A DNA stretch of 64,000 nucleotides. Source: Octopus vulgaris. Lineage: Eukaryota. Shown here piece by piece: positions 5,918 through 51,760 of this stretch; position 1 is the stretch's first letter, and every line of letters starts with the position of its first letter. Location: the NCBI GenBank assembly GCA_951406725.2, contig OX597831.1:22320001-22384000 (forward strand), in the 5' to 3' direction. The notes below the pieces were generated by a model, which had not been told where the DNA came from, searched no databases, and saw only the letters and a program-made list of their open reading frames with translations. The translations under genes and the position numbers were made by a program.

Positions 5918-6497
5918 ATAGAATTAAACCAGTCGACCACTTGGAACGAATTAGACCATAAATTAAGCTTTAATTTATTAACTAAGGTAGGAATATATTT
6001 ATCTAGAATATTTTTGCTCAGAGCTAGAAGGACAAATGACTAAATTTAGTTCCTATTAGTGATTTATACCAGTCTATAAAATTCGACCTTTAACTGTCTT
6101 CTTACATTTCACTTCTACTAAATATATCTGCTTCCAAGCCTTTAATCTTAATTCCTATACACCTATCGCACTATATTTCTCCACTTTTAATTTCCTGCTG
6201 ATTTCTTTCTTTCCCCCTCCTTCTCTTTCTATAAATTGTCTTTACGTTATATCTATTAACTGCTTCTTTTTTTTTTAAATAACGCACTAGCGTCCCCTTC
6301 ATCAGACATACAGTAATCACATTCGGTTTTGTTTCTCTTTTTTTTTTCCTGATTAGAAGATTGCATTATTTTTCATCATTTTATTCCTTCAGGAATAATA
6401 CCAATATTTTCTTCCAAACATGTATCGGAAGTAAAAAGATTTGAATAACAGCTGCGTTTAACTCCATTTATATATACATACCTACATACACACACAC

Positions 6498-6549
<52 letters not shown>

Positions 6550-6659
6550 ATCATGTGACCGACCAGACCATTAGATGTTGTTTCATATCGCTGGTCACAA
6601 TGCGTTCGCATTGCTTTAGCCTTCGATTGACGCCACCCCGCTGGCTAAGCGAGCAGGCC

Positions 6660-6700
<41 letters not shown>

Positions 6701-6707
<7 letters not shown>

Positions 6708-6816
6708 TCAATATAGGGTGGCAAAAAAAAAAAAAAATTTTTGTAGAATTCTTTTGCCACCAGCGGCCTAGTAGGAAAAAATTAAATAGTCATAGACCAT
6801 TTTTAAGTTTAACATC
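6701..6816 (-). repeat. Fragment (first ~115 nt) of the 495-nt retrozyme unit
   Basis: Matches 8596-8706; abuts (TA)n on the left and the LINE fragment on the right. Confidence 0.9.
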
Positions 6817-8080
6817 TTTGCAAAGGCCTTTGATAAAGTCGATCATGGAATGATATGTCACAAACTGCGTGATCTCAACATAGTTGGAAAACTGGGAGAA
6901 TGGCTTCATGACTTTCTGAAAGATAGAAGTCAGGTGGTAGTGGCCAATGGGGCCACTTCCATTAACACGCAAATAGTGAGCGGTGTTCCGCAGGGCACTG
7001 TTCTGGGACCACTACTGTTCATAATGGCCCTCTCAGACATGCCCTCAGCCACGCAGAGAGCCACGATCACAAGTTATGCAGATGATACAAAAGTTTCACA
7101 GGCAATACAGAACCCTAAGGACACTAAACACCTGCAATGTGAGCTAGACAAAATATACAAGTGGGCCGAAAAGAATAGCATGCAGTTCAATGCTGAAAAG
7201 TTTCAAGCTCTATACTATCAGCATGCAAAACTAAATGCAATACCCAATGAATACACTGGACCCGGAGGAATAGCAATCCCAGAGGCACAATCAGTGCGTG
7301 ACCTAGGTATTTACATGAGTGATGACGCGACCTTTCGTGTACATGTTGCTAAATTGGCAATGAAATGTAGACGACTGGCCGGATGGATCCTCAGAACCTT
7401 TAGAACAAGAGAACAAGAAACCATGATGGTCCTCTGGAGGACACTTGTCCTAAGCCACTTTGACTACTGCTCTCAGTTATGGTCACCATCCAGTGTCAAG
7501 TTGATCACAGAGCTCGAGGCGATCCAACGTAGCTACACGAAGAAGATAGCCTCTATGCAGAATGTAAGCTACTGGGAAAGACTCAGGAAATTAAAATTAT
7601 ATTCCCTGGAGCGTAGGCGGGAAAGATATGCCATAATATACATCTGGAAGATCCTGGAGGGAAGTGTCCTGAACTTTGGCATCGAGAGTTACGCAAATGC
7701 CAGAACTGGGCGCCACTGCGTGGTGCCTAGGACTCCAAACTTGCCATCAAGATGTAGGACAAGATTCTGTGATAGCCTGGGCTTCCGAGGCCCACAGCTC
7801 TTCAATATCCTCCCGAAGAACCTGAGAGACCTGCATGGGGTGGATACAGATGTCTTTAAAATGAAGCTGGATCTCTTCCTGTCAGGTGTCCCAGATGAAC
7901 CAACTTCACGGCAGGAGGGGCAGATGAGGGCAGCTGCATCGAACTCTCTCATGCACCAAATAGCAGCTGCTAGAAAGCCTTCATGAAGTGAAACCAAGTA
8001 GCAACACCAAATGGCGGTGCCCCAGCATGGCCACAGCTCATAAGCTGAAACTGGAAAAATCAAAATCAAAATCAAAATCA
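6816..8080 (+). mobile_element. CR1/L2-group LINE 3' fragment (RT C-terminal part, ORF 6850-7986); inverted copy of ~10733-11996
   Basis: FAKAFDKVDH, SGVPQGTVLGPLLF, YADDTK and YSLERRRERY motifs; (AAAATC)n tail; begins abruptly mid-RT. Confidence 0.92.
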
Positions 8081-8159
8081 TATATGTATATGTATTTATG
8101 TGTGCATATGTGTGTGTGTGTTTATGTATACGTATGTATATACATATATAAATAAATAA

Positions 8160-8211
<52 letters not shown>

Positions 8212-8331
8212 ACAATCAAGGAACGGCCATAATAGGCCATTCACCCACTAGAAATAACAGCCAAAGCTTCAACCGCAAATAAAAGTTAATTCTGTAAACC
8301 AGGAGAAAATTTAAAAAACATTTACCCTGTA

Positions 8332-8438
8332 ATTTCTTATACGATATACCGTTTCATCTGCTGATTAATGGTAAACTAACCTGATTAAATTAAATCAAGC
8401 CAATCTTCCACAGGCCCTCAGATTCATCAGTAAGAAAT
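8332..8438 (-). ncRNA. Type I hammerhead ribozyme
   Basis: Reverse complement of the motif at 9399-9505. Confidence 0.9.
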
Positions 8439-8827
8439 AGCCCAAGTCGGAACAGATATTTTCACGAGGCATTTCCGACCTTGCCAAGTTTATATCTGAC
8501 CTAAAATTTTCAAATCGTCGCACTCGCGCCAAATTTATCGGCAGCAAATAAATATAAGCCGTCGATTCCATTACGGAATTAACCAGAAAATTCATAATTA
8601 ATCAATATAGGGTGGCAAAAAAAAAAAATTTTGTAGAATTCTTTTGCCACCAGCGGCCTAGTAGGAAAAAATTAAATAGTCATAGACCATTTTTAAGTTT
8701 AACATCAACAATCAAGGAACGGCCATAATAGGCCATTCACCCACTAGAAATAACAGCCAAAGCTTCAACCGCAAATAAAAGTTAATTCTGTAAACCAGGA
8801 GAAAATTTAAAAAACATTTACCCTGTA

Positions 8828-8934
8828 ATTTCTTATACGATATACCGTTTCATCTGCTGATTAATGGTAAACTAACCTGATTAAATTAAATCAAGCCAAT
8901 CTTCCACAGGCCCTCAGATTCATCAGTAAGAAAT
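8828..8934 (-). ncRNA. Type I hammerhead ribozyme
   Basis: Reverse complement of the motif at 9399-9505. Confidence 0.9.
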
Positions 8935-9398
8935 AGCCCAAGTCGGAACAGATATTTTCACGAGGCATTTCCGACCTTGCCAAGTTTATATCTGACCTAA
9001 AATTTTCAAATCGTCGCACTCGCGCCAAATTTATCGGCAGCAAATAAATATAAGCGGTTATTTGCGGTTGAAGCTTTGGCTGTTATTTCTAGTGGGTGAA
9101 TGGCCTATTATGGCCGTTCCTTGATTGTTGATGTTAAACTTAAAAATGGTCTATGACTATTTAATTTTTTCCTACTAGGCCGCTGGTGGCAAAAGAATTC
9201 TACAAAATTTTTTTTTTTTTGCCACCCTATATTGATTAATTATGAATTTTCTGGTTAATTCCGTAATGGAATCGACGGCTTATATTTATTTGCTGCCGAT
9301 AAATTTGGCGCGAGTGCGACGATTTGAAAATTTTAGGTCAGATATAAACTTGGCAAGGTCGGAAATGCCTCGTGAAAATATCTGTTCCGACTTGGGCT

Positions 9399-9505
9399 AT
9401 TTCTTACTGATGAATCTGAGGGCCTGTGGAAGATTGGCTTGATTTAATTTAATCAGGTTAGTTTACCATTAATCAGCAGATGAAACGGTATATCGTATAA
9501 GAAAT
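9399..9505 (+). ncRNA. Type I hammerhead ribozyme, predicted cleavage after GUA (9497)
   Basis: Stem I AUUUCUUA/UAAGAAAU; core CUGAUGA (9407-9413); stem II AUCUG/CAGAU with a long internal hairpin; GAAA (9482-9485); self-complementary stem III ACGGUAUAUCGU. Confidence 0.92.
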
Positions 9506-9893
9506 TACAGGGTAAATGTTTTTTAAATTTTCTCCTGGTTTACAGAATTAACTTTTATTTGCGGTTGAAGCTTTGGCTGTTATTTCTAGTGGGTGAATGG
9601 CCTATTATGGCCGTTCCTTGATTGTTGATGTTAAACTTAAAAATGGTCTATGACTATTTAATTTTTTCCTACTAGGCCGCTGGTGGCAAAAGAATTCTAC
9701 AAAATTTTTTTTTTTGCCACCCTATATTGATTAATTATGAATTTTCTGGTTAATTCCGTAATGGAATCGACGGCTTATATTTATTTGCTGCCGATAAATT
9801 TGGCGCGAGTGCGACGATTTGAAAATTTTAGGTCAGATATAAACTTGGCAAGGTCGGAAATGCCTCGTGAAAATATCTGTTCCGACTTGGGCT

Positions 9894-10000
9894 ATTTCTT
9901 ACTGATGAATCTGAGGGCCTGTGGAAGATTGGCTTGATTTAATTTAATCAGGTTAGTTTACCATTAATCAGCAGATGAAACGGTATATCGTATAAGAAAT
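9894..10000 (+). ncRNA. Type I hammerhead ribozyme, predicted cleavage after 9992
   Basis: Same motif as 9399-9505. Confidence 0.92.
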
Positions 10001-10385
10001 TACAGGGTAAATGTTTTTTAAATTTTCTCCTGGTTTACAGAATTAACTTTTATTTGCGGTTGAAGCTTTGGCTGTTATTTCTAGTGGGTGAATGGCCTAT
10101 TATGGCCGTTCCTTGATTGTTGATGTTAAACTTAAAAATGGTCTATGACTATTTAATTTTTTCCTACTAGGCCGCTGGTGGCAAAAGAATTCTACAAAAT
10201 TTTTTTTGCCACCCTATATTGATTAATTATGAATTTTCTGGTTAATTCCGTAATGGAATCGACGGCTTATATTTATTTGCTGCCGATAAATTTGGCGCGA
10301 GTGCGACGATTTGAAAATTTTAGGTCAGATATAAACTTGGCAAGGTCGGAAATGCCTCGTGAAAATATCTGTTCCGACTTGGGAT

Positions 10386-10492
10386 ATTTCTTACTGATGA
10401 ATCTGAGGGCCTGTGGAAGATTGGCTTGATTTAATTTAATCAGGTTAGTTTACCATTAATCAGCAGATGAAACGGTATATCGTATAAGAAAT
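10386..10492 (+). ncRNA. Type I hammerhead ribozyme, predicted cleavage after 10484
   Basis: Same motif as 9399-9505. Confidence 0.92.
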
Positions 10493-10612
10493 TACAGGGT
10501 AAATGTTTTTTAAATTTTCTCCTGGTTTACAGAATTAACTTTTATTTGCGGTTGAAGCTTTGGCTGTTATTTCTAGTGGGTGAATGGCCTATTATGGCCG
10601 TTCCTTGATTGT

Positions 10613-10652
<40 letters not shown>

Positions 10653-10732
10653 TTATTTATTTATATATGTATATACATACGTATACATAAACACACACAC
10701 ACATATGCACACATAAATTCATATACATATAT

Positions 10733-12947
10733 GATTTTGATTTTGATTTTGATTTTTCCAGTTTCAGCTTATGAGCTGTGGACATGCTGGGGCACCGCCA
10801 TTTGGTGTTGCTACTTGGTTTCACTTCATGAAGGCTTTCTAGCAGCTGCTATTTGGTGCATGAGAGAGTTCGATGCAGCTGCCCTCATCTGCCCCTCCTG
10901 CCGTGAAGTTGGTTCATCTGGGACACCTGACAGGAAGAGATCCAGCTTCATTTTAAAGACATCTGTATCCACCCCATGCAGGTCTCTCAGGTTCTTCGGG
11001 AGGATATTGAAGAGCTGTGGGCCTCGGAAGCCCAGGCTATCACAGAATCTTGTCCTACATCTTGATGGCAAGTTTGGAGTCCTAGGCACCACGCAGTGGC
11101 GCCCAGTTCTGGCATTTGCGTAACTCTCGATGCCAAAGTTCAGGACACTTCCCTCCAGGATCTTCCAGATGTATATTATGGCATATCTTTCCCGCCTACG
11201 CTCCAGGGAATATAATTTTAATTTCCTGAGTCTTTCCCAGTAGCTTACATTCTGCATAGAGGCTATCTTCTTCGTGTAGCTACGTTGGATCGCCTCGAGC
11301 TCTGTGATCAACTTGACACTGGATGGTGACCATAACTGAGAGCAGTAGTCAAAGTGGCTTAGGACAAGTGTCCTCCAGAGGACCATCATGGTTTCTTGTT
11401 CTCTTGTTCTAAAGGTTCTGAGGATCCATCCGGCCAGTCGTCTACATTTCATTGCCAATTTAGCAACATGTACACGAAAGGTCGCGTCATCACTCATGTA
11501 AATACCTAGGTCACGCACTGATTGTGCCTCTGGGATTGCTATTCCTCCGGGTCCAGTGTATTCATTGGGTATTGCATTTAGTTTTGCATGCTGATAGTAT
11601 AGAGCTTGAAACTTTTCAGCATTGAACTGCATGCTATTCTTTTCGGCCCACTTGTATATTTTGTCTAGCTCACATTGCAGGTGTTTAGTGTCCTTAGGGT
11701 TCTGTATTGCCTGTGAAACTTTTGTATCATCTGCATAACTTGTGATCGTGGCTCTCTGCGTGGCTGAGGGCATGTCTGAGAGGGCCATTATGAACAGTAG
11801 TGGTCCCAGAACAGTGCCCTGCGGAACACCGCTCACTATTTGCGTGTTAATGGAAGTGGCCCCATTGGCCACTACCACCTGACTTCTATCTTTCAGAAAG
11901 TCATGAAGCCATTCTCCCAGTTTTCCAACTATGTTGAGATTACGCAGTTTGTGACATATCATTCCATGATCGACTTTATCAAAGGCCTTTGCAAAGTCGA
12001 GATATATCACTTCCACATTTGAGTGGTTGAGCAGCCGTTTCAGCACCCAGTCATAGTGTTGTAGCAGCTGAGTTAAACAGCTTCTCCCTGGTCGGAAACC
12101 ATGTTGGGTGTCGGGCAGCAAGTCATTTTCTTCAAGGAAGGTGATCAGCTTCCTTCTGACTATTCGTTCCATGACCTTGCTGATGTGTGAGGTCAGAGAG
12201 ATAGGTCTATAGTTCTTGGCTTCCGCTCTGCTACCTCCTTTATGAATGGGGCATATTTTACCTTCCTTCAGTTTTCTTGGAAGTTTGCCAGCTGCAAGGA
12301 AGCTCTGAAAGAGGAACTGCAGTGGTCTTGCTAGGGCTCTCTTACATGCTTTTAGGAGGATTGCCGGGAATCCATCGGGGCCAGTAGCTGAGTCTGTTTT
12401 CATTTCATCTATAGCCTTGATTACATCGTCTTCCTTTATATCGATGTAATCTATCGTCGCCGCCTCTGATTTTATATCTGCAGTGGTAAAAAAGTCAGTT
12501 GGATTGGTGATTTGGAGATGCCCAAGGGGTGGAGTGAAACACTCTTGAATTGCTCATTCAGTATTTCACTTACCCTCATTGGTTTTCCTGTAAGTGTGCC
12601 ATCCTTTTCGAGGAGTGGCCCTATTCTACAGTGCACCGTAGCTGTTTCTTTGGCATACCTGTAGAAAGCTCTGGGGTTAGATTTTATGTTGTCTATAGCC
12701 CAGGCTTCTTTGTCTGCTCTTTCCTTTTCATGGGAGAGTTTCAGACATTTTTCGATTTCCAACAGTTTTATTTTTAGGCGGGACTTTTCACTGCTTTCAA
12801 TCTGTTTGTTTAGGCGATTTGAAAATTTTGTACGCCGTCTCATTAGAATTTTCCTCTCTCTGGGGATTTTGTTCTTGTGTACAGTGGCCTTTCTCTCTGG
12901 GACATATTTGTAGCATATGGCTTGCATTACAGACATGAATTGTTGAA
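10733..12947 (-). mobile_element. CR1/L2-group LINE, 5'-truncated (ORF2 pieces 12472-12936 and 10826-12403 separated by a frameshift)
   Basis: GPDGFP, NYRPISLTS, QHGFRPGRSC, YLDFAKAFD, GVPQG and YADD RT motifs; IKSNPRAFYRY upstream; (AAAATC)n tail. Confidence 0.93.
10826..12403 (-). CDS. LINE reverse transcriptase domain ORF (525 aa, part of a broken ORF2)
   Basis: Full set of non-LTR RT motifs in one frame; no endonuclease domain in the window. Confidence 0.75.
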   Translation of the reverse strand: MKTDSATGPDGFPAILLKACKRALARPLQFLFQSFLAAGKLPRKLKEGKICPIHKGGSRAEAKNYRPISLTSHISKVMERIVRRKLITFLEENDLLPDTQHGFRPGRSCLTQLLQHYDWVLKRLLNHSNVEVIYLDFAKAFDKVDHGMICHKLRNLNIVGKLGEWLHDFLKDRSQVVVANGATSINTQIVSGVPQGTVLGPLLFIMALSDMPSATQRATITSYADDTKVSQAIQNPKDTKHLQCELDKIYKWAEKNSMQFNAEKFQALYYQHAKLNAIPNEYTGPGGIAIPEAQSVRDLGIYMSDDATFRVHVAKLAMKCRRLAGWILRTFRTREQETMMVLWRTLVLSHFDYCSQLWSPSSVKLITELEAIQRSYTKKIASMQNVSYWERLRKLKLYSLERRRERYAIIYIWKILEGSVLNFGIESYANARTGRHCVVPRTPNLPSRCRTRFCDSLGFRGPQLFNILPKNLRDLHGVDTDVFKMKLDLFLSGVPDEPTSRQEGQMRAAASNSLMHQIAAARKPS

Positions 12948-12949
12948 GT

Positions 12950-13155
12950 TTCTTTTATTCTTTTATCTGTTTCAGTCATTTGACTGCGACCATGCTGGAG
13001 CACCGCCTTTAGTCGAACAAATCAACCCGAGAACTTATTCTTTGTAAGCCTAGCACTTCTTCTATTGTTTACTTTTGCTGAATCGCTAAATCACGGGGAT
13101 GTAAACACACCACCATCGGTTGTCAAGCGATGGTGGAGAGAAAAACACAGACACA

Positions 13156-39385: not shown

Positions 39386-39766
39386 AGCACTCCGTCGGTT
39401 ACGACGACGAGGGTTCCGGTTGATCCGAATCAACGGAACAGCCTGCTCGTGAAATTAACGTGTAAGTGGCTGAGCACTCCATAGACACGTGTACCCTTAA
39501 CGTAGTTCTCGGGGATATTCAGCGTGACACAGAGAGTGACAAGGCCGGCCCTTTGAAATACAGGTACAACAGAAACAGGAAGTAAGAGTGAGAGAAAGTT
39601 GTGGTGAAAGAGTACAGCAGGGATCACCACCATCCCCTGCCGGAGCCTCGTGGAGCTTTAGGTGTTTTCGCTCAATAAACACTCACAACGCCCGGTCTGG
39701 GAATCGAAACCGCGATCCTATGACCGCGAGTCCGCTGCCCTAACCACTGGGCCATTGCGCCTCCAC
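39386..39766 (-). mobile_element. SINE family B, full length
   Basis: Reverse-complement match to 5528-5917. Confidence 0.9.
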
Positions 39767-39837
39767 GTACATATATATATATATTACCAGCACAATGACA
39801 CAGTCATCTCCGACTGTTCAGTCCTTGCCAAATCTGA

Positions 39838-40275
39838 ATATATTTATACAGACATGAACGAGTAAGTAGTTATATCCATTGGACCACATGCTAAAGCTAC
39901 AACATAAAGACTGGCAAGAAATGGTATTAACATGTTCCAAACAGACATGTGCCAAACAAGGTACATGACAACGGCCAAGTCAAAATTATCTGGGATTTGT
40001 CTTTCCAAGCTGACAAAGAAATAAAAGATGATCGACCAGATGTAAAAACCAAGGGTTGGGGGGAAAAAGCACCTGCTTGCTAATAGACATTACAGTTCCT
40101 TCTGGCGAAAATATTGTTCAAAAAGAAGTGGAGAAATTGTTAAAGTACAAAGACCTCGACATTGATGTTTTCAAGACGTAGGACATACAGGTGAAAACAA
40201 TATCAGTAATAACTGTAGCATTATGCGTGATAAAAAATAAGGCCTATGAACAAATACGCAGGAGCTATAATTGGA
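39838..40275 (+). pseudogene. R4/Dong-like LINE restriction-like endonuclease relic
   Basis: WDLSFQADKEIKDDRPDV...CLLIDITVP..NIVQKEVEKLLKYKDL (PD...D/E..K..KY). Confidence 0.8.
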
Positions 40276-41126
40276 AAATATTCGTCAAACGACAATCGAA
40301 CTGGCAGAGTAAACAGAATGCTCCTACACTGCCACAGAGAAGCATCTTCACTCGATGGGAAAGGTTCAGAAGTATGGAGCATGGGTTCCGCATGCTTTAA
40401 ACAAAAATCAACGAGCCACAATCTCCGCTTGTTTGTTTGCTCGACACCACTCAACTCATTGACACAAGCAACGATTTCTCTTTCTCTACCGAATCGTTAC
40501 TGGCGACGAAAAATGGTGCTTGTACATCAATATGAAGCAGCGTAAGAATGGCTTAGCCACGGTTAACAAGCAACACCGCGCGTGAAACAAGATCTTCATC
40601 CGCGTAAAACGATGTTGTGCGTATGGTGGGAATTGCTTGAACGGAACCAAACGGTCAACGCGGAACTCAATGTTCAATAGATGGAACGACTCAACACGGC
40701 TATTCAAGAGAAAAGACCTAATCGGCAGTATGGAGTTTTTCTGCTGCACGACAACGCCCACCCTCATATCGCCAATATGACCAAAGAAGCCATTCAAAGG
40801 TATGGCTGGGAAGTGCTGCCACACCCACCGTACTCTCCTGATTTGGCACCAATGGATTTCCGCCTCTTTTGATCTCTTTCAAATGCTATGCTTGGAGTTT
40901 CGTTCAATACTGATGCAGAATTGAGAGCTTGGTTGGATCAATTTTTCGAGTCGAAATCGGCTGATTTCTACCAACGAGGTATTGAAAATCTTGTTAAACG
41001 TTGGGAAGAAGTTGTAAACAACAAGGGTGAATACATTATTGATTAATAAGTTGTTATTTTTTGTATTAAACCTTTAAAAAATTTAAATTAAAAAAAAAAC
41101 GGTGGGTATTAGTTGCCAACCTAATA
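40276..41126 (+). mobile_element. Degenerate mariner (DD34D) transposon, 3' part with right TIR
   Basis: RIVTGDEKW, LHPRKTMLCVWW, LHDNAHPH and HPPYSPDLAPMDF motifs; ends ...TTAGTTGCCAACCTAA-TA. Confidence 0.88.
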
Positions 41127-41354
41127 TTAATCACCACAATTGTTCCGACCCATCTAGCATCGATCCCTCGCTAGTGGAATATTTAACATATCGGTTAACA
41201 TTAAAGCTTACAGGAGCATCGGACGGTGCAGATATGTCTATTTATCGCTCGAAGAGACACATCTGCACCGTCGGATGCTCCTAAACCATGTGTTAAATAT
41301 TCCATTCGTGAGGGATCGATGCTAGATGGATCGAAATAATTGTAGTGGTTAATA
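41125..41354. repeat. 230-bp fold-back element (MITE-like)
   Basis: CCATCTAGCATCGATCCCTC / GAGGGATCGATGCTAGATGG and AGGAGCATC.GACGGTGCAGAT / ATCTGCACCGTC.GATGCTCCT; near full-length palindrome. Confidence 0.88.
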
Positions 41355-41899
41355 AAAGTTCTCGTATCTTCCATCTGCCGTCTCCCATTAACCAAATGCA
41401 CACAAACGTGCGCGCACGCGCGTGGACGAATGTCACAATGTTTTCGTCTACCAAGCTCACAAATCATTGGTTGGTTAGAGGTTCTATGAGAAAACATTTG
41501 CCGAAGGTTCCACACACTGCAACTGAACCCGAAAGCATGAGATTTCAAAGCGAGCGTCTTAACCGCACAGCTATGTCTATGATTATAAATATATACGATT
41601 ATAGTTTAAAATAATCCCAGCCATTCCTATTATAGATTTTATCTTCGATGAATTAAACTGGCTGTTAAATGAATTGTGTAGGGTTGAATAAGGATAATGG
41701 AAAAAGGAAAATTTACACTCTTCATAAAGAACTCGTTGTCCTAAATCCGATATAGTTAGATTTAACACAGTGTCGCGTGTCGGATATGATATAAACAGCG
41801 ACCTATTACAACGGGTAGAGAAAAATATTAGAAGTCAAAGAAACACGGACTGATTAGTTTCGTAAAGCGAGTTGGGAAAGAAATCTTTATGTATGAGGT

Positions 41900-42620
41900 A
41901 ACGTCGGTAAAATATCAACTAGAATCTACGTAAAATAAAAATGGTTTTGTGATAAGAACAAAACAATGGAAACGGTAAAAATATCAAGAGAACAGAAGTT
42001 TAAAATCAAAGCAGAAGTGAAAAAAACGAAAATAATTATAAAAAGATATAAATACAAAAGCGAAAGTGGAAGAGAAGCCATCAAGGTTTGGATCAAAGGT
42101 GAAAATACAAGGTTTGATATTATCAACCGAACATCAATGGCTAAATACAAACTCCCAGCCAAGAAAAAAAATGGAAAGCGAAAGAGAATATATTAAAACA
42201 AGAGATTAACGCCAATTACAGATTATAGATAAAAAAAAATGATAATCAATCACACGATTTTCTAGCTACCTATCCTTCCTTCAAAGAAACAGAATATATT
42301 CATAGACATGAGTGGGTCGGCAGATATATCTATAGGGAAATATACTGATATATCTGAATGACAAGCGAAGATAAGTAGTAGAATCACGCACCAATCTCGC
42401 TGTGTGATAATAACATGGTTGTTTTAATCTGGGATATGCCTGTCTAAACTGACAAGAAAATCAAAACGAAGCGTCTAAATATCATATTCAAAGATGGAAA
42501 TGAAGAGCTAAGCCACACTGATATACATCTATGTATCTCTTCACAACTAAGCCATCTCTTCAGAAGAATGTTGAAAAGCTATCAAAGTAGGACATCGAAG
42601 TGGGAATAAGTAAGTAGGAG
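41900..42620 (+). pseudogene. Heavily decayed R4/Dong-like LINE C-terminus
   Basis: YIHRHEWVGRYIYREI and LIWDMPV*TDKKIKTKRLNIIFKD resemble the CCHC-to-endonuclease region. Confidence 0.55.
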
Positions 42621-43209
42621 AATCTGAATGACATCAATGGTAACTGGTGCATAATGAATGGTAACTAAAAGCAAAACAAAGCAAAACAAAACAAAAAAAA
42701 AAACACGAATAGGAACGGTAAAAGAAGCAAAATATTTCATGGCTTAAAAGAAATGTAATATAGAAATATAATAAACAAGAATATCGCCGTAACAGGGAGT
42801 GGCACATTTTTTTTTTGAAGCACAGCGCTTTTAATTTAGTAACGCACACATACACAAAGGCAACACATATTCTGAAAATTATATAATTTAGAAACACAAC
42901 GCATATATATACATACACACGCAACGCATATTCTATACACTCGTTATTATTCAGCATGCACACGTGCACAAACACACCCACACATACACACACACATAAA
43001 CATATACACATACGGGCGCATGCAACGTATATAGTCTAAGCAACCGTATGGTTTAATAACGGAACTCACACGAAACACATACAATGTAACCCATCTCATT
43101 AGTACACCCGAGAATTGAATATAATGAGCTCATTACCGTTTTCAAATGTTTTTAGCCCTTCTGGCCAATAACAGAAATCATCATCATCATCGCGCCAATA
43201 GTGCAAAAG

Positions 43210-43210
<1 letters not shown>

Positions 43211-43259
<49 letters not shown>

Positions 43260-43314
43260 AACAGTAACAACAACAACTACTACTACTACTACTACTACTA
43301 CAACAACAACAACA

Positions 43315-43349
<35 letters not shown>

Positions 43350-43371
43350 AACAACAACAACAACAACAACA

Positions 43372-43425
<54 letters not shown>

Positions 43426-43450
43426 GCTACTACTACTACTGCTGCTGCTA
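43211..43450. repeat. (CTA)n/(CAA)n microsatellite
   Basis: Direct inspection. Confidence 0.95.
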
Positions 43451-43455
43451 TAAAG

Positions 43456-43632
43456 TCGGCAAGCTGGAAGAATTGTCAGCGCGCCAGGTAAAATGTTTAG
43501 CGGTGTTTCGTTTGTCCCTATGTTCTGAGCTCAAATTCCGTCGAAGTCGACTTTGCCTTTCATCCTTTCAGGGTCGAAAAATTAAGCATCAGCGAAGCAA
43601 CGGGATCGATGTACTCGACTATCGCCCTCCCC
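43456..43632 (+). mobile_element. SINE family C, diverged
   Basis: TTCTGAGCTCAAATTCCGTCGAAGTCGACTTTGCCTTTCATCCTTTC. Confidence 0.7.
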
Positions 43633-43688
43633 ACCAAATATATAATACCTTTTATATATTTATACATTTATATACATTTATATATTTT

Positions 43689-44149
43689 CTCTGCCAGTTC
43701 TATTGTCGTTTGACGAGAATTTTCCAATTATAGCTCCTGCGTTTTTGTTCATAGGCCTTATTTTTTATCACGCATAATGCTACAGTTATTATTGATATTG
43801 TTTTCACCTGTATGTCCTACGTCTTGAAAACATCAATGTCGAGGTCTTTGTATTTTAACAATTTCTCCACTTCTTTTTGAACAATATTTTCGCCAGAAGG
43901 AACTGTAATGTCTTTTAGCAAGCAGGTGTTTTTTTTTCCAACCCTTGGTTATTACATCTGGTCGATCATCTTTTATTTCTTTGTCACCTTGGAAAAACAA
44001 ATCCCAGATAATTTTGGCTTGGTCGTTGTCATGTTTGGCACATGTCTGTTTGGAACATGTTAATACCATTTCTTGCCAGTTATGTTGCAGCTTTAGCATG
44101 TGATCCAGTGGATATAACTACTAACTCGTTCATGTCTGTATAAATATAT
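43689..44149 (-). repeat. Inverted duplicate of ~39838-40309 (R4-like relic plus mariner junction)
   Basis: Colinear reverse-complement match with scattered substitutions and small indels. Confidence 0.85.
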
Positions 44150-44176
44150 AAAATAATATCATATTAATCCACTAAT

Positions 44177-44294
<118 letters not shown>

Positions 44295-44764
44295 TTCAAC
44301 AAAAATTTAGATTCAAATGAATATAGTACTTAATTTAGATGCACCAGAATTCTGTATGGTGTTATCCATATAAATCCGTGGGGTGATTATAATCAAAATA
44401 AGCAACAAGAATGACTCCGGTAATTTGGTACGATCGTTTCGTACTACATCATTTTATTAAATGCTATAACTATTACAACGGTTTTAAAATTATAGAGGTT
44501 TTCCATTAATACAAAATTTTCATATCAAGTGGCAACATTATAGAGAAGGTAGATATATAGACAAAGATGTGGATTTAAATTTTAAGAACATTTGAGGTAG
44601 TGGAGCCCATCAACTGACTGATATATATATATATATATATATTACGATGAGGAAAAAATCGTGCACCACATTAAAGTAATGCATGTAAAAAATATATTGT
44701 TGTGGTGTGTATGTTCATTCAGTTCATGTCATGTTCAGTGGTGACTCACTTTTTCCCCAACCTA

Positions 44765-44915
<151 letters not shown>

Positions 44916-45071
44916 TATACATCTATATATGTATTTATAAACATATAGACCTACATATATATATATACCGGAGTAAACACATAAATGTGAAACAAGGTGG
45001 AAAAACGAGTACTCAAATACCAGTGGTAGAGTCATATGCTTTATTTAAAGCAGCAGAAAATTCTACAAAAC

Positions 45072-45109
45072 CTGTTACTCTGAGTTTCACGTTGCCGTTC
45101 ATCGGACAG
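45072..45109 (-). ncRNA. Minimal type I hammerhead (variant core CCGAUGA)
   Basis: CUGU-CCGAUGA-ACG(GCAA)CGU-GAAA-CUCAGAG-UA-ACAG; all three stems pair; stem III is quasi-palindromic. Confidence 0.7.
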
Positions 45110-45241
45110 TTTTTGCTAGAATAGAACCGATATGTCAATTCTATCCAGACTAGTATAAACGCTACACCTTTAAACATGGACTTGTTTGATTGGTCCTTTA
45201 CAAATAACGGTCAATTTTCGAGCGATAAACAAAAATGAGCT

Positions 45242-45296
<55 letters not shown>

Positions 45297-45344
45297 TATA
45301 AAATTCGAGGAAAAAACCTTACATCTAATCTTTGGTTAAAATAC

Positions 45345-45395
<51 letters not shown>

Positions 45396-45787
45396 CACAC
45401 ACATTCACACACACACAGGAACACACACACACACACATATATATGACGGGCTTATATGTTCACGTCGGTCTCTTTTCAATTACCTTTTACCAGATGCATT
45501 TACAAGGCTTTATTCGCCCCCCCTCCACCCACCCAAGGTAAATAATACAGTGGTAGAGGACACTTACCTAGTTTGCAATGAGGTGGGACTGAACCCAGAA
45601 CCGTTAGGTTGGGCAGCAAACGCCTTGTCTAACAACAACACGAACGCCTATTCTTACCACACAGCAACGCCTCTACCTATATCGCCGTCTCCTACCATAA
45701 ATAACACTTAATACACAACCATTTTCCCTATTCAGTAACACAACTTACACAACACATATGTTACACCAAGACCAAATATTATGTTTC

Positions 45788-45819
<32 letters not shown>

Positions 45820-46197
45820 ATTTGAAGGCCACATTAAATATATTGTAGCTTGAAAAGTCACATTAAAGGAAATTCTATTAAATATAAGGAAAATGTAATT
45901 ATATTTTATTGTGAAAATGTAATTATCGATATAGCATTAATAAATACAAATGAAATCTGACCTTTTATTGTCCTACATATACTTGTGTATTTATGTATAT
46001 GAGTGTTTGAGTGTGTGTGTGTTCCACTGTGTCTTTGTGTGTGTGTGTGTGTGTGTGTGTGTGAGTGATTAAAAGGTCAGTTTACTTACATTTATATTAA
46101 TGTAATGTTATATAATATTTATGACTATTGTATTTCGTATATATAATACATATATAAATAATAATATATACATATACATATATGTATATATATATAC

Positions 46198-46238
<41 letters not shown>

Positions 46239-46497
46239 ATAATATATATATTACTATATATACATGTGTGTATATATGTATCATATATATATAAATAGTA
46301 TATTTTATAATATATACATATACATATGTATGTGTGTTTACACACACACATATATGTATCTATATATATATTTATATATGCATTATACGTACATACACCA
46401 GTGCAGACGCACACATAATATATATTCAATGAATACCTATTGAATTATTGTGTAAAAAATAACATTTAAAACTGGGCAGTTAATGCTTTGATATATA

Positions 46498-46561
<64 letters not shown>

Positions 46562-46599
46562 CACGTACATATACACACGCACGCGTCAAGGTCACCAGC

Positions 46600-46915
46600 C
46601 CTATTGCACACACATACGTACTCTCTTATACACACGCACGCGAGCCTTCGTTTTGGGATCACCACTATTTTATTATCTCCCCTTATTCCTAGCTCACACA
46701 TGTAACCCCTCTGTCTGTCATTCGCCATGATAGATCGCTAACCACTACACATTCTTTATTTTGTCTCCTTATTTCTTTCTATATTCCTGTCTGGAAGAGC
46801 GTAGGCTCGAAACGTTAAAGTATTCTTCTCTTCCCGAGAGTTTAACTAATACATCTGTTTGTTGTCTACACCACCTGTCTTCGTCTTTTCTTTTTTGTGA
46901 ATTCTCCCCCCTGTA
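46600..46915 (+). mobile_element. PLE pLTR-like fragment with a decayed minimal hammerhead (~46787-46820)
   Basis: CTGGAA-GAGC(GTAG)GCTC-GAAA-CGTT-AAAG resembles 32150-32184, but the core is broken. Confidence 0.5.
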
Positions 46916-46919
46916 TATA

Positions 46920-47327
46920 CTCTTTACTCTTTTACTCTTTTACTTGTTTCAGTCATTTGACTGCGGCCATGCTGGAGCACCGCCTTTAGTCGAGCAACTC
47001 GACCTCGGGACTTATTCTTTGTAAGCCCAGTACTTATTCTATCGGGGTCTTTTGCCGAACCGCTAAGTGACGGGAACGTAAACACACCAGCATCGGTTGT
47101 CAAGCAATGCTAGGGAGACAAACACAGACACACAAACACATACAAACACATATATATATACATATATACGACAGGCTTCTTTCAGTTTCCGTCTACCAAA
47201 TCCACTCACAAGGCATTGGTCGGCCCGGGGCTATAGCAGAAGACACTTGTCCAAGATGCCACGCAGTGGGACTGAACCCGGAACCATGTGGTTGGTTAGC
47301 AAGCTACTTACCGCACTGCCACTCCTC
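46920..47327 (-). mobile_element. SINE family A, near full length
   Basis: Match to 37143-37563. Confidence 0.88.
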
Positions 47328-47983
47328 CCAATTGACTGGCCCCCTCCCCCATAATTTTGGGCCTTGTGCCTAGAGTTGACAAGAATACAACAACCAACGT
47401 ACTTATTAAACCCAGTCATCTCTTAGTACTTTAAAGCTTTACAGCACAAGGTTATGAAGGGAAACTTTTTAGTCGCTCGATCTACTAAAAATAGCGGACA
47501 AATTTTCCTTAGATCACATCGTGCTGTCATATAAAATATGCATTTGATAATGCTGTCCTAGATCAGTCGACAATTGCTATCCCTCTGCTTTGGACGGTAA
47601 ATGCCGAAGAGGTTTGGTGCGTTTTGGGTGTTCAGAAAAGAACATGAGATTTTCTCTTACAAATAATATATGAAAACCGCTTCAAGCGGTGAGCTGATAG
47701 AATTGTTAGGGTATCGGGTTGAAATGCTGCCGACGTTGGCGTCAATTGGCTTTCATCCTTTCGGGGTCGATAAAATAAATTACCTGTTGAACACAGGTGT
47801 CGATTTAATCGATTCAGCACCTGCCCTGAAATTTTTTGCCTTGTGATAAAAATTTGATACCAATACGTCGAAACCAGGTACAATACATATTAAATTAAAC
47901 ACATTTTCCAAAAATCTTTGCTAGCAAGAACACAGTGTTTTAAGGAGCAAAAACATTATTCATGATGTATCAAAGACCCCACC

Positions 47984-48391
47984 AATAGGATTTCGTTAGT
48001 CCTTGCCTTCTTTAATATAAGACAATATGGATAATGAAGCAGTGTGCAAAATTGTTTGATTAAAATATCTTTTATCCTGAGTTTTCTTTTCTTTGCCAAC
48101 GTGCGGTGGGGTTGCTTGCAAAATGTCAATCGGTGAAAAATAAAGCGAAAATATACGCTGAGCTACTGAAAAATGAGTAAGCTTATATCCTAGATACGCA
48201 ATCTGAAAAGTAAAAGATGGAATAGTCACGAGTGGAACGCCCTAAATTAAAAAGCGGAAAAAATCTCTTCTAGATACAGTCTGAAAAAATAAAAGATAAC
48301 ATGGTCACGACTGGAACGCCTTTAATCAAAATATGGAGAAATACTGTCCAAGATATATAATTTGAAATATAGGTGGATTAGTTACGGTTGG
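47984..48391. repeat. ~410-bp direct repeat, copy 1 (copy 2 at ~51844-52252)
   Basis: AATAGGATTTCGTTAGTCCTTGC...GGATTAGTTACGGTTGGA nearly identical in both. Confidence 0.9.
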
Positions 48392-48866
48392 ATCCCCCTT
48401 CGATCGACGTCTGATCTGGGGCTAGCTAAATAAAGACAGCAGCAACAACAACAAGCATAATGACATGACGTCATACGAATGAATGCACCGCTTCTAGGGG
48501 AAATGTTGACGAAGATACACAATTAATTGGAGCTTGATATAACATTACAATGATAATATTGTTGTTGCTTAATAAATTATTTGCTTTCAACGCGGCTACG
48601 ATTCTCACTTACTATTTAGATCTGATCATGTTACACGAAACACAATAAACTTATCATATTGTCTTTCTGTCTGTCTGTCTCTCTCCCTCTCTTCTGCTTC
48701 GAACAGTTATTTGGTTTGAGGCTAAAAGAAAATGGCTGCAGCGTATTTCTTTTGTACGCCATTGTGAAGAGTTACACATTTTAACAATCGACTAAATATT
48801 ATATACATTTTTAAATATAATTAATTAGTAGATATTGTTATTGTTGTTGCCGAAGAATAGCAGCGG

Positions 48867-48867
<1 letters not shown>

Positions 48868-48954
<87 letters not shown>

Positions 48955-49124
48955 GTTGTTGTTGTTGTTGTTGTTGTTATTATTGTTGTTATTATTATTA
49001 TTGTTGTTATTATCATTATTATTATTATTATTATTTTATCAACATCATCATCATCGTCGTCGTCGTCATCATCATCATCATCATCATCATTATTAAAAAG
49101 AATAAATTATTATTATTATTATTG

Positions 49125-49171
<47 letters not shown>

Positions 49172-49287
49172 TTTATCATCATCATCATCATCGTCGTCGT
49201 CATCATCATCATTATCATCATCATCATTATCATTATTATTATTATCAACATCATCATCATCATCGTCGTTGTCGTCGTCGTCATCAG

Positions 49288-49374
<87 letters not shown>

Positions 49375-49592
49375 TTATTATTATTATTATTGTTGTTGTT
49401 ATTATTATTATTATTATTATTTTATCAACATCATCATCATCATCGCCGTTGTCATCATCATTATTATCATTATTATTATCATCCTCCTCCTCCTCATCAT
49501 CATCATCCTCATCATCATCATCATCATCATCATCTTCATCATCATCTTCATCATCATCATCATCATCATTATTATCATTGTCACTACTATTA
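48868..49592. repeat. (ATT)n/(GTT)n/(CAT)n compound microsatellite
   Basis: Direct inspection. Confidence 0.95.
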
Positions 49593-49955
49593 TCTCTTTC
49601 CAGTAGTCTTCTGCGACTTTTTTTTCACTGTACATTAAGCGAGTATTTCAGTGCTCTAGAGATGTACACGGCATTGTCTGTTGATAATGTATCCGCGTTA
49701 CGTAATATTTAGAATTTTTTTCTCTGCTTTGTTCTGAAAAAAGAAAACGTTTTCATTATTAGGAAGTGACAGTATGGCATATATTTTGTGTGAGTGGTGA
49801 TTGCGTAGAATACGTGTTGTGTAGAATCTGTACTTTTGTACAGGGTGGTGACTGAGTATATATGATCATAAATATCGTAACATATGTCATAGAGCATTTA
49901 TCCTATACTATAACCTCCTAATAATATGATTCAAGGGCTTAATTCTATTCTATCC

Positions 49956-50053
<98 letters not shown>

Positions 50054-50073
50054 ATATATATATATATCAATCC

Positions 50074-50129
<56 letters not shown>

Positions 50130-50171
50130 GTCTGTCTGTCTACCTGTCTATGTATTTATTTGTCTGTCTAT

Positions 50172-50259
<88 letters not shown>

Positions 50260-50599
50260 GTATGTATGTATGTATGTATGTATGTATGTATGTATGTATG
50301 AATAACTTAGAATAACTTAGAAAGGTTTTGACCAGTATTGGCCCAGGCCATGTCTAACTTAATAGCACCACCTGGCAATGTATGTATGTATGTATCTATC
50401 TATCTATCTATCTATTTATTTATCTATCTATCTATCTGTCTATCTAATTAGCTAGCTGTTTGTCAATCTATCTATATCTGAATGTATGTATGTATGTATG
50501 TATGTATGTATGTGTGTGCGTGCGTGCGTGTGTTTTTGTGTGTGTATGTGACTTGCTTTGTGAGATAAATTCGTTCAATTTCCATTTGTTTCAAGCCTT

Positions 50600-51760
50600 A
50601 TTTTTCATCAACAGCTTCAACAAATAAATTTATCACATATTTTCCTTCATTGTTCACGGCTTCTTGCCAACGTACCACTGTCTTGTCACTGCCCAAATCG
50701 TAGAAATCACTTGGTCTTGACTCGAAAAATTGATCGATCCACCTTTTCAGCTGCCCATTGTTGTTAAATGAAATGCCTCGCAGACTGTTGGAAAGAGACC
50801 AAAAAGTGATAATCTGAGGGCGCTGTACCAAGAGAATACGGTGAGGGCGGTTAAACTGTCCAACTGAACTCTTAAATAATATTTTGATCAATTAACAACG
50901 TGTAGTAGGACGAGTGTTGTCGCGTTGAACAAGCACTCAGCGTCGCTGGTCGGTTCGTTTCCGTTAGATTGCATCGTTGAGCCGGAACATTTAATCAATG
51001 TAATGCGCTACATTGAACGCGTGGTTGTATCCAAACATTTTGTAGTAGATTAGCCCTTCTCAGTCCCATCAAATGCAGATCATTGTCTTGTGTGAATGCA
51101 GATCTAGCTTGGCTCGAGATGTTGTTTTGCTGGTCAGTATTCCGCCGTTCTTTCCTCTGCTTGATATTGACGTAAAGTGGAGGCGCAATGGCCCAGTGGT
51201 TAGGGCAGCGGACTCGCGGTCGTAGGATCGCGGTTTCGATTCCCAGACCGGGCGTTGTGAGTGTTTATTGAGTGAAAACACCTAAAGCTCCACGAGGCTC
51301 CAGCAGGGGATGGTGGTGATCCCTGCTGTACTCTTTCACCACAACTTTCTCTCACTCTTACTTCCTGTTTCTGTTGTACCTGTATTTCAAAGGGCCGGCC
51401 TTGTCACACTCTGTGTCACGCTGAATATCCCCGAGAACTACGTTTAAGGGTACACGTGTCTGTGGAGTGCTCAGCCACTTGCATGTTAATTTCACGAGCA
51501 GGCTGTTCTGTTGAACGTATCAGCTGGGACCCTCGTCGTCGTAACCGACGTATTGCTCCTATTGACGTAAAGACACCAGATTTTTTTTATCGCCGGTGAT
51601 CATACGGTAAAGAAATATTTGTGTCAACGAATAACCGAGCAAAAAACTGGTAGAAGGACAAAGAAATTGGTAGCAAAGGAACTCGTAGAAGGGCGCTGGG
51701 GTTTGTATCTTTCGTTTCGAGTACATGTCTCACATGCATCAGGTTTTTAGAGCTCACTCA
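50600..51760 (-). pseudogene. Decayed mariner transposase interrupted by a SINE
   Basis: ITGDKK(I)WCLYVN, LHSHKTMICI*WD and WSLSNSLRGISFNN...WIDQFFESRPSDFY; homologous to 40276-41126. Confidence 0.75.
51178..51559 (+). mobile_element. SINE family B, full length
   Basis: 13-bp TSD TATTGACGTAAAG at 51165-51177 and 51560-51572. Confidence 0.92.

Follow-up and report, generated by a model that had tools for sequence, protein, structure and literature searches.

How can an inserted repeat come to enclose, between two pieces of itself, an inverted copy of the DNA that lies beside it? The question is raised by a locus in a window of 64,000 nucleotides (nt) of Octopus vulgaris contig OX597831.1 (the whole stretch analysed, with no N anywhere), in which tandem copies of a non-coding 495-nt unit with a predicted hammerhead ribozyme form a palindrome together with flanking sequence. 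An earlier, sequence-only reading had ascribed it to a twin-priming-like event on one circular RNA, and had taken as its signature an exact return to the unit beyond the captured flank. Here we establish the anatomy of the locus, the fixed ends of its family, the local origin of the flank copy and the recurrence of such copies elsewhere. As judged from its sequence, a single insertion of a non-coding hammerhead repeat accounts for the locus: the 109 end lies to the left and the 495 end to the right, as is normal in the family, and the right end together with 1.38 kb of its flank is present once more in inverted form. An origin at the time of insertion, with the opposite end copied in inverted form and this copy joined to the partner complementary DNA (cDNA), is in our judgement very probable when the three routes that would produce it are summed.

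Anatomy of the palindrome and source of the copied flank

Unit coordinates follow the copy at 9630-10124, taken as unit 1-495. From left to right the locus consists of (TA)n, unit 109 to 1 followed by ATC, an inverted copy of 10617-11996, units 495 to 1 and 495 to 144, GG, unit 421 to 495 with three further units, and finally (TA)n, a spacer and a long interspersed nuclear element (LINE) that extends to at least 12954 (Table 1). Self-comparison of the window pairs 6816-8197 with 10615-11996 and 8208-9055 with 9773-10616. The palindrome of units, (TA)n, spacer and LINE is present as first described, the mirror running for 1379 nt at 99.8% identity, far beyond chance, and the inversion junction lies where it had been placed, with GG between 9055 and 9058; this GG, taken with the nearby repeat of GCGGTT, looks like a short templated insertion. 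The right arm, 75 nt plus three units, measures 1559 nt or 3.15 units of period 495, in agreement with the approximately 3.15 rolls ascribed earlier to the right-hand cDNA. The outer arm at 6701-6816 has zero substitutions relative to the units of the same locus, the T-run aside.

The two arms differ in total by four substitutions and two repeat lengths. The differences named earlier (a D/N codon, the poly-T length and C/A at 10384) are real, but the list was incomplete: the flank arms carry three substitutions in ∼1380 nt, at 6871/11941 (D/N), 8030/10782 and 8093/10719, plus 12 nt of (TA)n length, and the last two substitutions and the length difference had been omitted. The unit arms are distinguished by the base at 10384 and by the length of the T-run (12 vs 8). 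A 3-nt GAT overlap had also been read at the outer join; some sharing is possible, but its extent is ambiguous (0-3 nt) because the G is common to the LINE, a 1-nt microhomology, and the AT is common to (AT)n.

The inverted 1.38 kb between the two left pieces is a copy of the present right flank, since both LINE copies have 7117A, against G in 18/18 others, and since the spacer is unique, among the loci fetched, to those overlapping the window. On the strength of the private variant and the unique spacer we also rejected the idea that the left LINE had inserted independently, as a member of a very young family. We take the host LINE to be CR1-like from its motifs rather than from a tree. Its family is very young, with 38 other scored copies 99-100% identical over 1259 nt, and many copies end on (TA)n. 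At window 6545-6660 lies a dispersed repeat, usually running on (ACAGAAG...), which ends on (TA)n at the same point as in locus L073.

Table 1. Features of the locus, in window positions
Feature	Positions	Strand	Remarks
Left (TA)n target tract	6660-6700	.	
Outer arm, unit 109 to 1 plus 3 nt (ATC)	6701-6816	-	Starts at the main fixed terminus, 109; usual partner of the 495 arm
Inverted copy of right-hand CR1-like LINE, 3' 1.26 kb, with (AAAATC)n tail	6817-8080	+	Private variant 7117A; 1-nt microhomology join to outer arm
Inverted copy of locus-specific microsatellite spacer and (TA)n	8081-8207	+	Spacer confined to loci overlapping the window, among those fetched
Left unit arm, 495 to 1 then 495 to 144	8208-9055	-	Starts at the 495 terminus, as the right arm does
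Inversion junction, GG between 9055 and 9058	9056-9057	.	GCGGTT recurs 10 nt downstream
Right arm, 421 to 495 plus three units of 492-497 nt	9058-10616	+	Ends at the fixed terminus GTTGAT
Type I hammerhead motif, middle unit	9896-9998	+	Comprises CUGAUGA at 9902, a long stem II and GAAA; cleavage predicted after GUA at 9992; every unit has one such motif
Right (TA)n target and spacer	10617-10731	+	Source of 8081-8207
Host CR1-like LINE, original copy, running past the mirrored part (11996)	10732-12954	-	Reverse transcriptase frame 10826-12553; overlapping upstream frame 12472-12954; RVT_1 E 1.9e-31

Two fixed ends and a hammerhead unit

The genome (2.8 Gb) holds 1084 candidates for the unit, 40 of them scored. 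Besides the present locus 199 loci were mapped, namely the 39 best DNA matches and two sets of 80, one selected on the 495 end (C1-C6) and the other on the 109 end (C1-C2); the sample is not random, and its loci have flanks of 2-6.5 kb. Two 3' ends on (AT)n are fixed, one at unit 109 (820 exact matches) and the other at unit 495, GTTGAT (243 exact matches). The first survey, which covers 120 loci including the present one, gave 77 plain inverted 109/495 pairs, 37 loci with one end called, one with none and five complex loci; in the second survey 56 of 80 loci are plain pairs. Most loci outside the plain pairs have only one end called, and a 109/109 pair occurs at one locus, L047. The termini adjoin (AT)n, a criterion on which the later samples were chosen but the first 39 loci were not. 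The family offers ∼1000 young insertions that have two fixed start sites.

This rule supports priming of both DNA ends at insertion, and by the same evidence the outer fragment at 6701-6816 is, as far as sequence can tell, the ordinary partner arm of the 495 arm. Because units on opposite arms of a locus are a median of 2 substitutions apart, against 15 to other loci, a common RNA haplotype is supported as the probable template of both arms; near-identical units occur at other loci too, so a single RNA molecule is not proven. Of the twin-priming-like event on one circular RNA, the two primed ends and the one haplotype are supported; the circular template is conjectural. In classical twin priming adjacent, non-overlapping parts of one RNA are copied; here the arms overlap over whole units.

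A search pattern with a non-T base before GATGTTAAAC matched the present locus alone, but it spans one subfamily variant only and was set aside; a wider pattern matched mostly subfamily arrays and was not used. An inverted array at G000:C1:195860414-195868201 has at least 17 units with the same junction variant in all.

The tandem units (period 495, 3.2 copies) hold no frame of 120 aa or more. Each contains CUGAUGA, a long stem II of ∼70 nt, GAAA and GUA, with a predicted cut after unit 363. The CUGANGA...GAAA...NUH core is kept in 208 of 218 full units from 101 loci, its free N taking all four bases (A 72, T 95, G 24, C 17) and its NUH being GTA, GTC or GTT; at the cut-off used, the distinct ribozyme sequences number seven. 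Stems I and II fold (z -3.5) and stem III is absent from the predicted fold, and an Rfam scan gave no hammerhead match. Many short 495 arms end at 360-392, beside the predicted cut (23/35 in the first survey, 12/21 in the second sample), as would be expected of linear RNA, while 70 of 105 495 arms in the first survey run across it, which would fit circles or uncut multimers as the RNA template. Because both kinds of arm are found, cut linear RNA and circles or uncut multimers both seem to serve as templates. A reading of the 495/1 junction as a linear RNA end with sloppy junctions was dropped, the apparent gaps being locus-wide variants.

These features support a non-long terminal repeat (non-LTR) retrozyme with Penelope-type insertion, its self-cleavage being a prediction here. 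Like metazoan non-LTR retrozymes, as far as the descriptions available to us go, the family is dispersed at high copy number, is low in GC and consists of tandem non-coding units, in every one of which a type I hammerhead motif occurs. Its unit lies above the 150-450 bp reported for such elements in PMC7229834, yet within the 51-972 bp of a preprint (bioRxiv 10.64898/2026.07.22.740005). It differs in its stem II of ∼70 nt and in being known here from sequence alone, and its inverted arms and fixed ends are absent from the parts of those two sources available to us. Complex insertions of EN+ Penelope-like elements (PLEs) are described with an inverted 5'-truncated copy and a tail at one end only (PMC8557442), and a PLE protein cleaves and extends both strands in vitro, with two reverse transcriptase (RT) start sites (PMC11167929). 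In the accessible portions of these accounts the shared features are the inverted truncated copy, the one-sided tail and AT-rich or (TA)n targets (PMC8557442, PMC3846280, PMC11167929); unlike those elements, the present family has a tail of 109 nt rather than 30-40 and multi-unit arms. The claim that inverted partial copies are a PLE hallmark agrees with that pattern (PMC8557442).

Among 30 fetched of 148 GIY-YIG matches in the genome, we found no autonomous RT plus GIY-YIG partner sharing pseudo-LTR (pLTR) sequence; the 30 loci have no pLTR homology to the unit, except for one separate 57-nt insertion. An open Penelope-type frame with RT-like motifs and GIY-YIG at L157:1-2870 ends on (AT)n and has no sequence in common with the unit, and many GIY-YIG matches have a 781-aa open frame and a score equal to it. 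At L159:79-568 another hammerhead repeat is inserted head to head, adjoining a decayed GIY-YIG element; one side of this repeat ends TTTTGAT on (AT)n and the other extends further.

Mirrored ends at other loci and the return to the unit

Mirrored ends recur at three of the 199 other loci (L144, L047 and L117), with none in the last 80, which gives 4/200 with the present locus. The survey of other loci that had been proposed for the same geometry thus found the mirrored ends but not the return in register, which occurs at none of the three; the outer arm of L117 ends 8 nt off. L144 is the reciprocal of the present locus: a 495 outer arm of 105 nt, ending at 391, is followed by a 508-nt inverted flank copy and a mirrored 109 arm. 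Its capture join has a 1-nt microhomology, 385T>A is found in its mirrored units alone, and the 202 nt at its centre that remain unpaired belong to the left arm, the side expected from fold-back. At L047 both ends are 109 ends, the flank mirror measures 158 nt, an outer arm is absent and the left arm is ∼400 nt longer. In L117 a 113-primed outer arm ending at ∼487 is joined to a 1.26-kb mirror that begins 33 nt inside the right end. Because a 12-nt deletion and a junction containing a 22-nt flank capture are common to both of its sides, this mirror was copied as DNA. Within the arm of the same locus, at 6037-6232, the right terminus and 27 nt of flank are directly duplicated with a 5-nt microhomology, which looks like a cDNA re-copying its own priming site. 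L128 carries direct copies of flank from 1.2-1.6 kb away, consistent with kb-scale resection.

The outer arms end at favoured cDNA stop sites, 391 in L144, ∼487 in L117 and 493 at the present locus, and an event at insertion time therefore fits. To that extent the earlier proposal that the flank was captured during insertion is supported.

The exact return is another matter. It had been offered as a special signature, with the proviso that it would fall if GTTGAT were simply a fixed terminus of the element, and GTTGAT is such a terminus at its 243 exact matches. Because the outer fragment is a normal 109 arm and GTTGAT a normal 495 start, the position at which the 109 arm stops is the one free variable. 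We counted arm stops without the four mirrored loci, excluding 109 arms below 100 nt and 495 arms below 60 nt. The 109 arms end at 476-495 in 8/88 cases in the first survey and 6/63 in the second, where ∼7 diverged 109 arms are cut short at the T-run; the pooled value is 14/151 (p=0.003 vs uniform), or 13/150 (p=0.008) without a doubtful arm call at L231. The corresponding counts for 495 arms are 0/103, 3/50 and 3/153. The contrast between the two kinds of arm is significant when pooled (Fisher p=0.006) but failed to replicate in the second sample alone (6/63 vs 3/50, p=0.73). A mild stall zone for 109 arms just past the 495 start would be consistent with the idea that the second cDNA halts where the first began; the pooled excess speaks for that idea and the unreplicated contrast against it. 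Within 5 nt of the register we find 5/151 109 arms (∼3%, p=0.25); a special mechanism is thus unnecessary for the exact return, and L144 returns 281 nt out of register. Its exactness thus appears neither rare enough nor required, and is probably for the most part a product of the two fixed ends.

How the mirrored end may have formed

Fold-back synthesis on one cDNA-extended end, followed by end-joining to the partner cDNA, is a route to which we give slightly less than an even chance. In the steps that we infer, a Penelope-type enzyme would cut both strands in (TA)n, and both 3' ends would be extended on the same RNA haplotype, from site 495 and from site 109. The 109 cDNA would halt after ∼112 nt, near the start of the 495 cDNA, while the long 495 cDNA end would anneal back on its own strand and prime synthesis outward through the arm and the resected flank. 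Opening or breakage of the hairpin at a distance of 1.38 kb would then provide an end for joining to the 109 cDNA through 1-nt homology, and the left arm would lose two whole units, or the right arm gain them. The capture joins have a 1-nt microhomology both here and in L144, which fits end-joining better than a switch onto flank DNA, and these joins, together with the left-longer centres of L144 and L047, fit fold-back with end-joining.

Several observations weigh against this route. The unpaired loop lies on the folded-back strand in L144 and L047, but not, unless whole units were lost, here or in L117, where the unpaired centre is on the right arm (∼710 nt and ∼1.67 kb, respectively). Because simple fold-back predicts a centre on the opposite side, whole-unit loss (two units here and four in L117, that is at 2/4 loci) must be added. 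The left unit is of U1/U2 type (T12, 263C), unlike its mirror partner U3 (T8, 263A), which counts in part against fold-back; unit loss and fresh priming on RNA would fit it equally. As to the copy direction, 3/3 polarisable substitutions at the present locus are on the right arm (p=0.25); L144 and L117 show changes on both arms. Finally, L117 contains a short-range example of a rival route, in which a cDNA switches onto flank and back to site 495 over a 28-nt range with 5-nt microhomology.

In that rival, which is close to the switch to flanking DNA proposed earlier, the 109 cDNA would stall on reaching the site where the 495 cDNA is primed and switch to the right flank, onto its top strand at a distance of 1.38 kb; from there it would copy inward as far as the cut and re-prime at 495 on the RNA, with an ordinary inversion junction to the right arm. 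It is one of two live mechanisms: either arm may be longer, so unit loss is unneeded here or in L117, the left unit would lack T8 and 263A of U3 as observed, and the pooled excess of 109 stops at 476-495 is in its favour. However, duplex DNA 0.5-1.4 kb away would have to be invaded on 1 nt of homology, here and in L144, where end-joining suits the join better. Resection, by established repair logic, would remove the template strand; the 385T>A common to the mirrored units of L144 would require heterogeneous multimer RNA or DNA copying; and the stop contrast is unreplicated. On balance we consider the template switch rather unlikely. More doubtful is a fuller version, in which a two-headed Penelope complex would prime both cut ends on one circular ribozyme RNA at two fixed sites, and the second RT, halted at the first primer, could jump to host DNA, copy more than 1 kb and re-prime on the circle; if true, 1-2% of retrozyme insertions would give rise to local inverted duplications in the germline.

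The third insertion-time route, breakage-replication/fusion, is improbable. Here the cDNA-extended right end would be replicated and the sister ends fused head to head, and one would break 1.38 kb out and join the left end. The model is described for L1 foldbacks, in the parts of the reports available to us (10.1101/2024.12.14.628481, PMC11702581), and accommodates both a longer arm on either side and the shared lesions, but it needs a second break within 0.03-1.4 kb at each such locus and a viable germline product. A later DNA rearrangement of an ordinary 109/495 palindrome, in which replication slips from the left arm to the right arm, enters the flank and comes back, is a shade less probable again. 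Long palindromes with tandem units are unstable, and the first switch would use homology; arbitrary return points are expected, yet those observed fall in the favoured cDNA stop zones, and the arm divergence (3/1380) resembles unit-to-unit divergence within loci (119/39309). Palindromes are also a known class of assembly or read fold-back artefact. This explanation we hold to be the least probable, because the arms have diverged, at four substitutions and two repeat lengths, because the left end lies on the partner terminus of the family, and because L144 is reciprocal; the window, moreover, is gap-free.

Returning to fold-back with end-joining, inverted duplications of L1 have been attributed to self-annealed priming, with 0-bp joins read as end-joining (10.1101/2024.12.14.628481, Mendez-Dorantes et al.), and L1 insertions with foldback or local inverted duplication are on record (PMC11702581). 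As far as these descriptions reach, the present loci resemble L1 foldbacks in having an inverted genomic DNA copy at an insertion end, on the kb scale, with a low-homology join to the other cDNA; the L1-type join of an inverted local flank copy with little homology is found with 1 nt both here and in L144. The L1 duplications are somatic or experimental, and sit on the reciprocal end without cDNA. Unlike these, the duplicated end here has multi-unit cDNA, both ends are primed, and the product stands in an assembled genome at 4/200 loci. On the accounts available to us the inversion is a known PLE pattern and the mirrored end is known for L1. A mirrored flank is not among the EN+ PLE insertions in the accessible parts of PMC8557442, PMC3846280 and PMC11167929, and we found no report of a mirrored end for PLEs or retrozymes in the literature searched, which left subscription papers uncovered.

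How Penelope-type elements make tandem and inverted insertions has been called unresolved, in the part of PMC8557442 that we draw on. The mirrored loci, rare cases of failed resolution that left the partner cDNA attached to a copy, made as DNA, of the end opposite, show both ends extended before sealing, and kb-scale duplication of flank can result, as is likewise described, in the portions accessible to us, for human L1 in cell lines and cancers (10.1101/2024.12.14.628481, PMC11702581). The present locus is probably a by-product of repair and shows no sign of function.

Other loci show further irregularities. In L084:5940-6491 the right arm carries 2.4 successive copies of a 239-nt deletion unit (263 to 495 plus 6 nt), against units of the full 495 nt on the left arm, which suggests a mini-circle or a second template within one insertion. 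Inversion junctions near unit 364-386 in L085, L088, L092, L101, L102 and L258 carry iterated TTTAAAAA-type inserts of ∼17-56 nt, resembling products of slippage or of templated addition. One (TA)n tract, at L060:3518-6436, contains neighbouring insertions from two subfamilies (98% and 91% to the unit), and other families contribute a tandem array of 505-nt period and a palindrome of 2.3 kb beside insertions at L057:1732-4166 and L061:1725-4001. Elsewhere in the window, other inverted repeat pairs of ∼270 nt lie at 39494-51449 and 40045-43953, 98% and 93% complementary.

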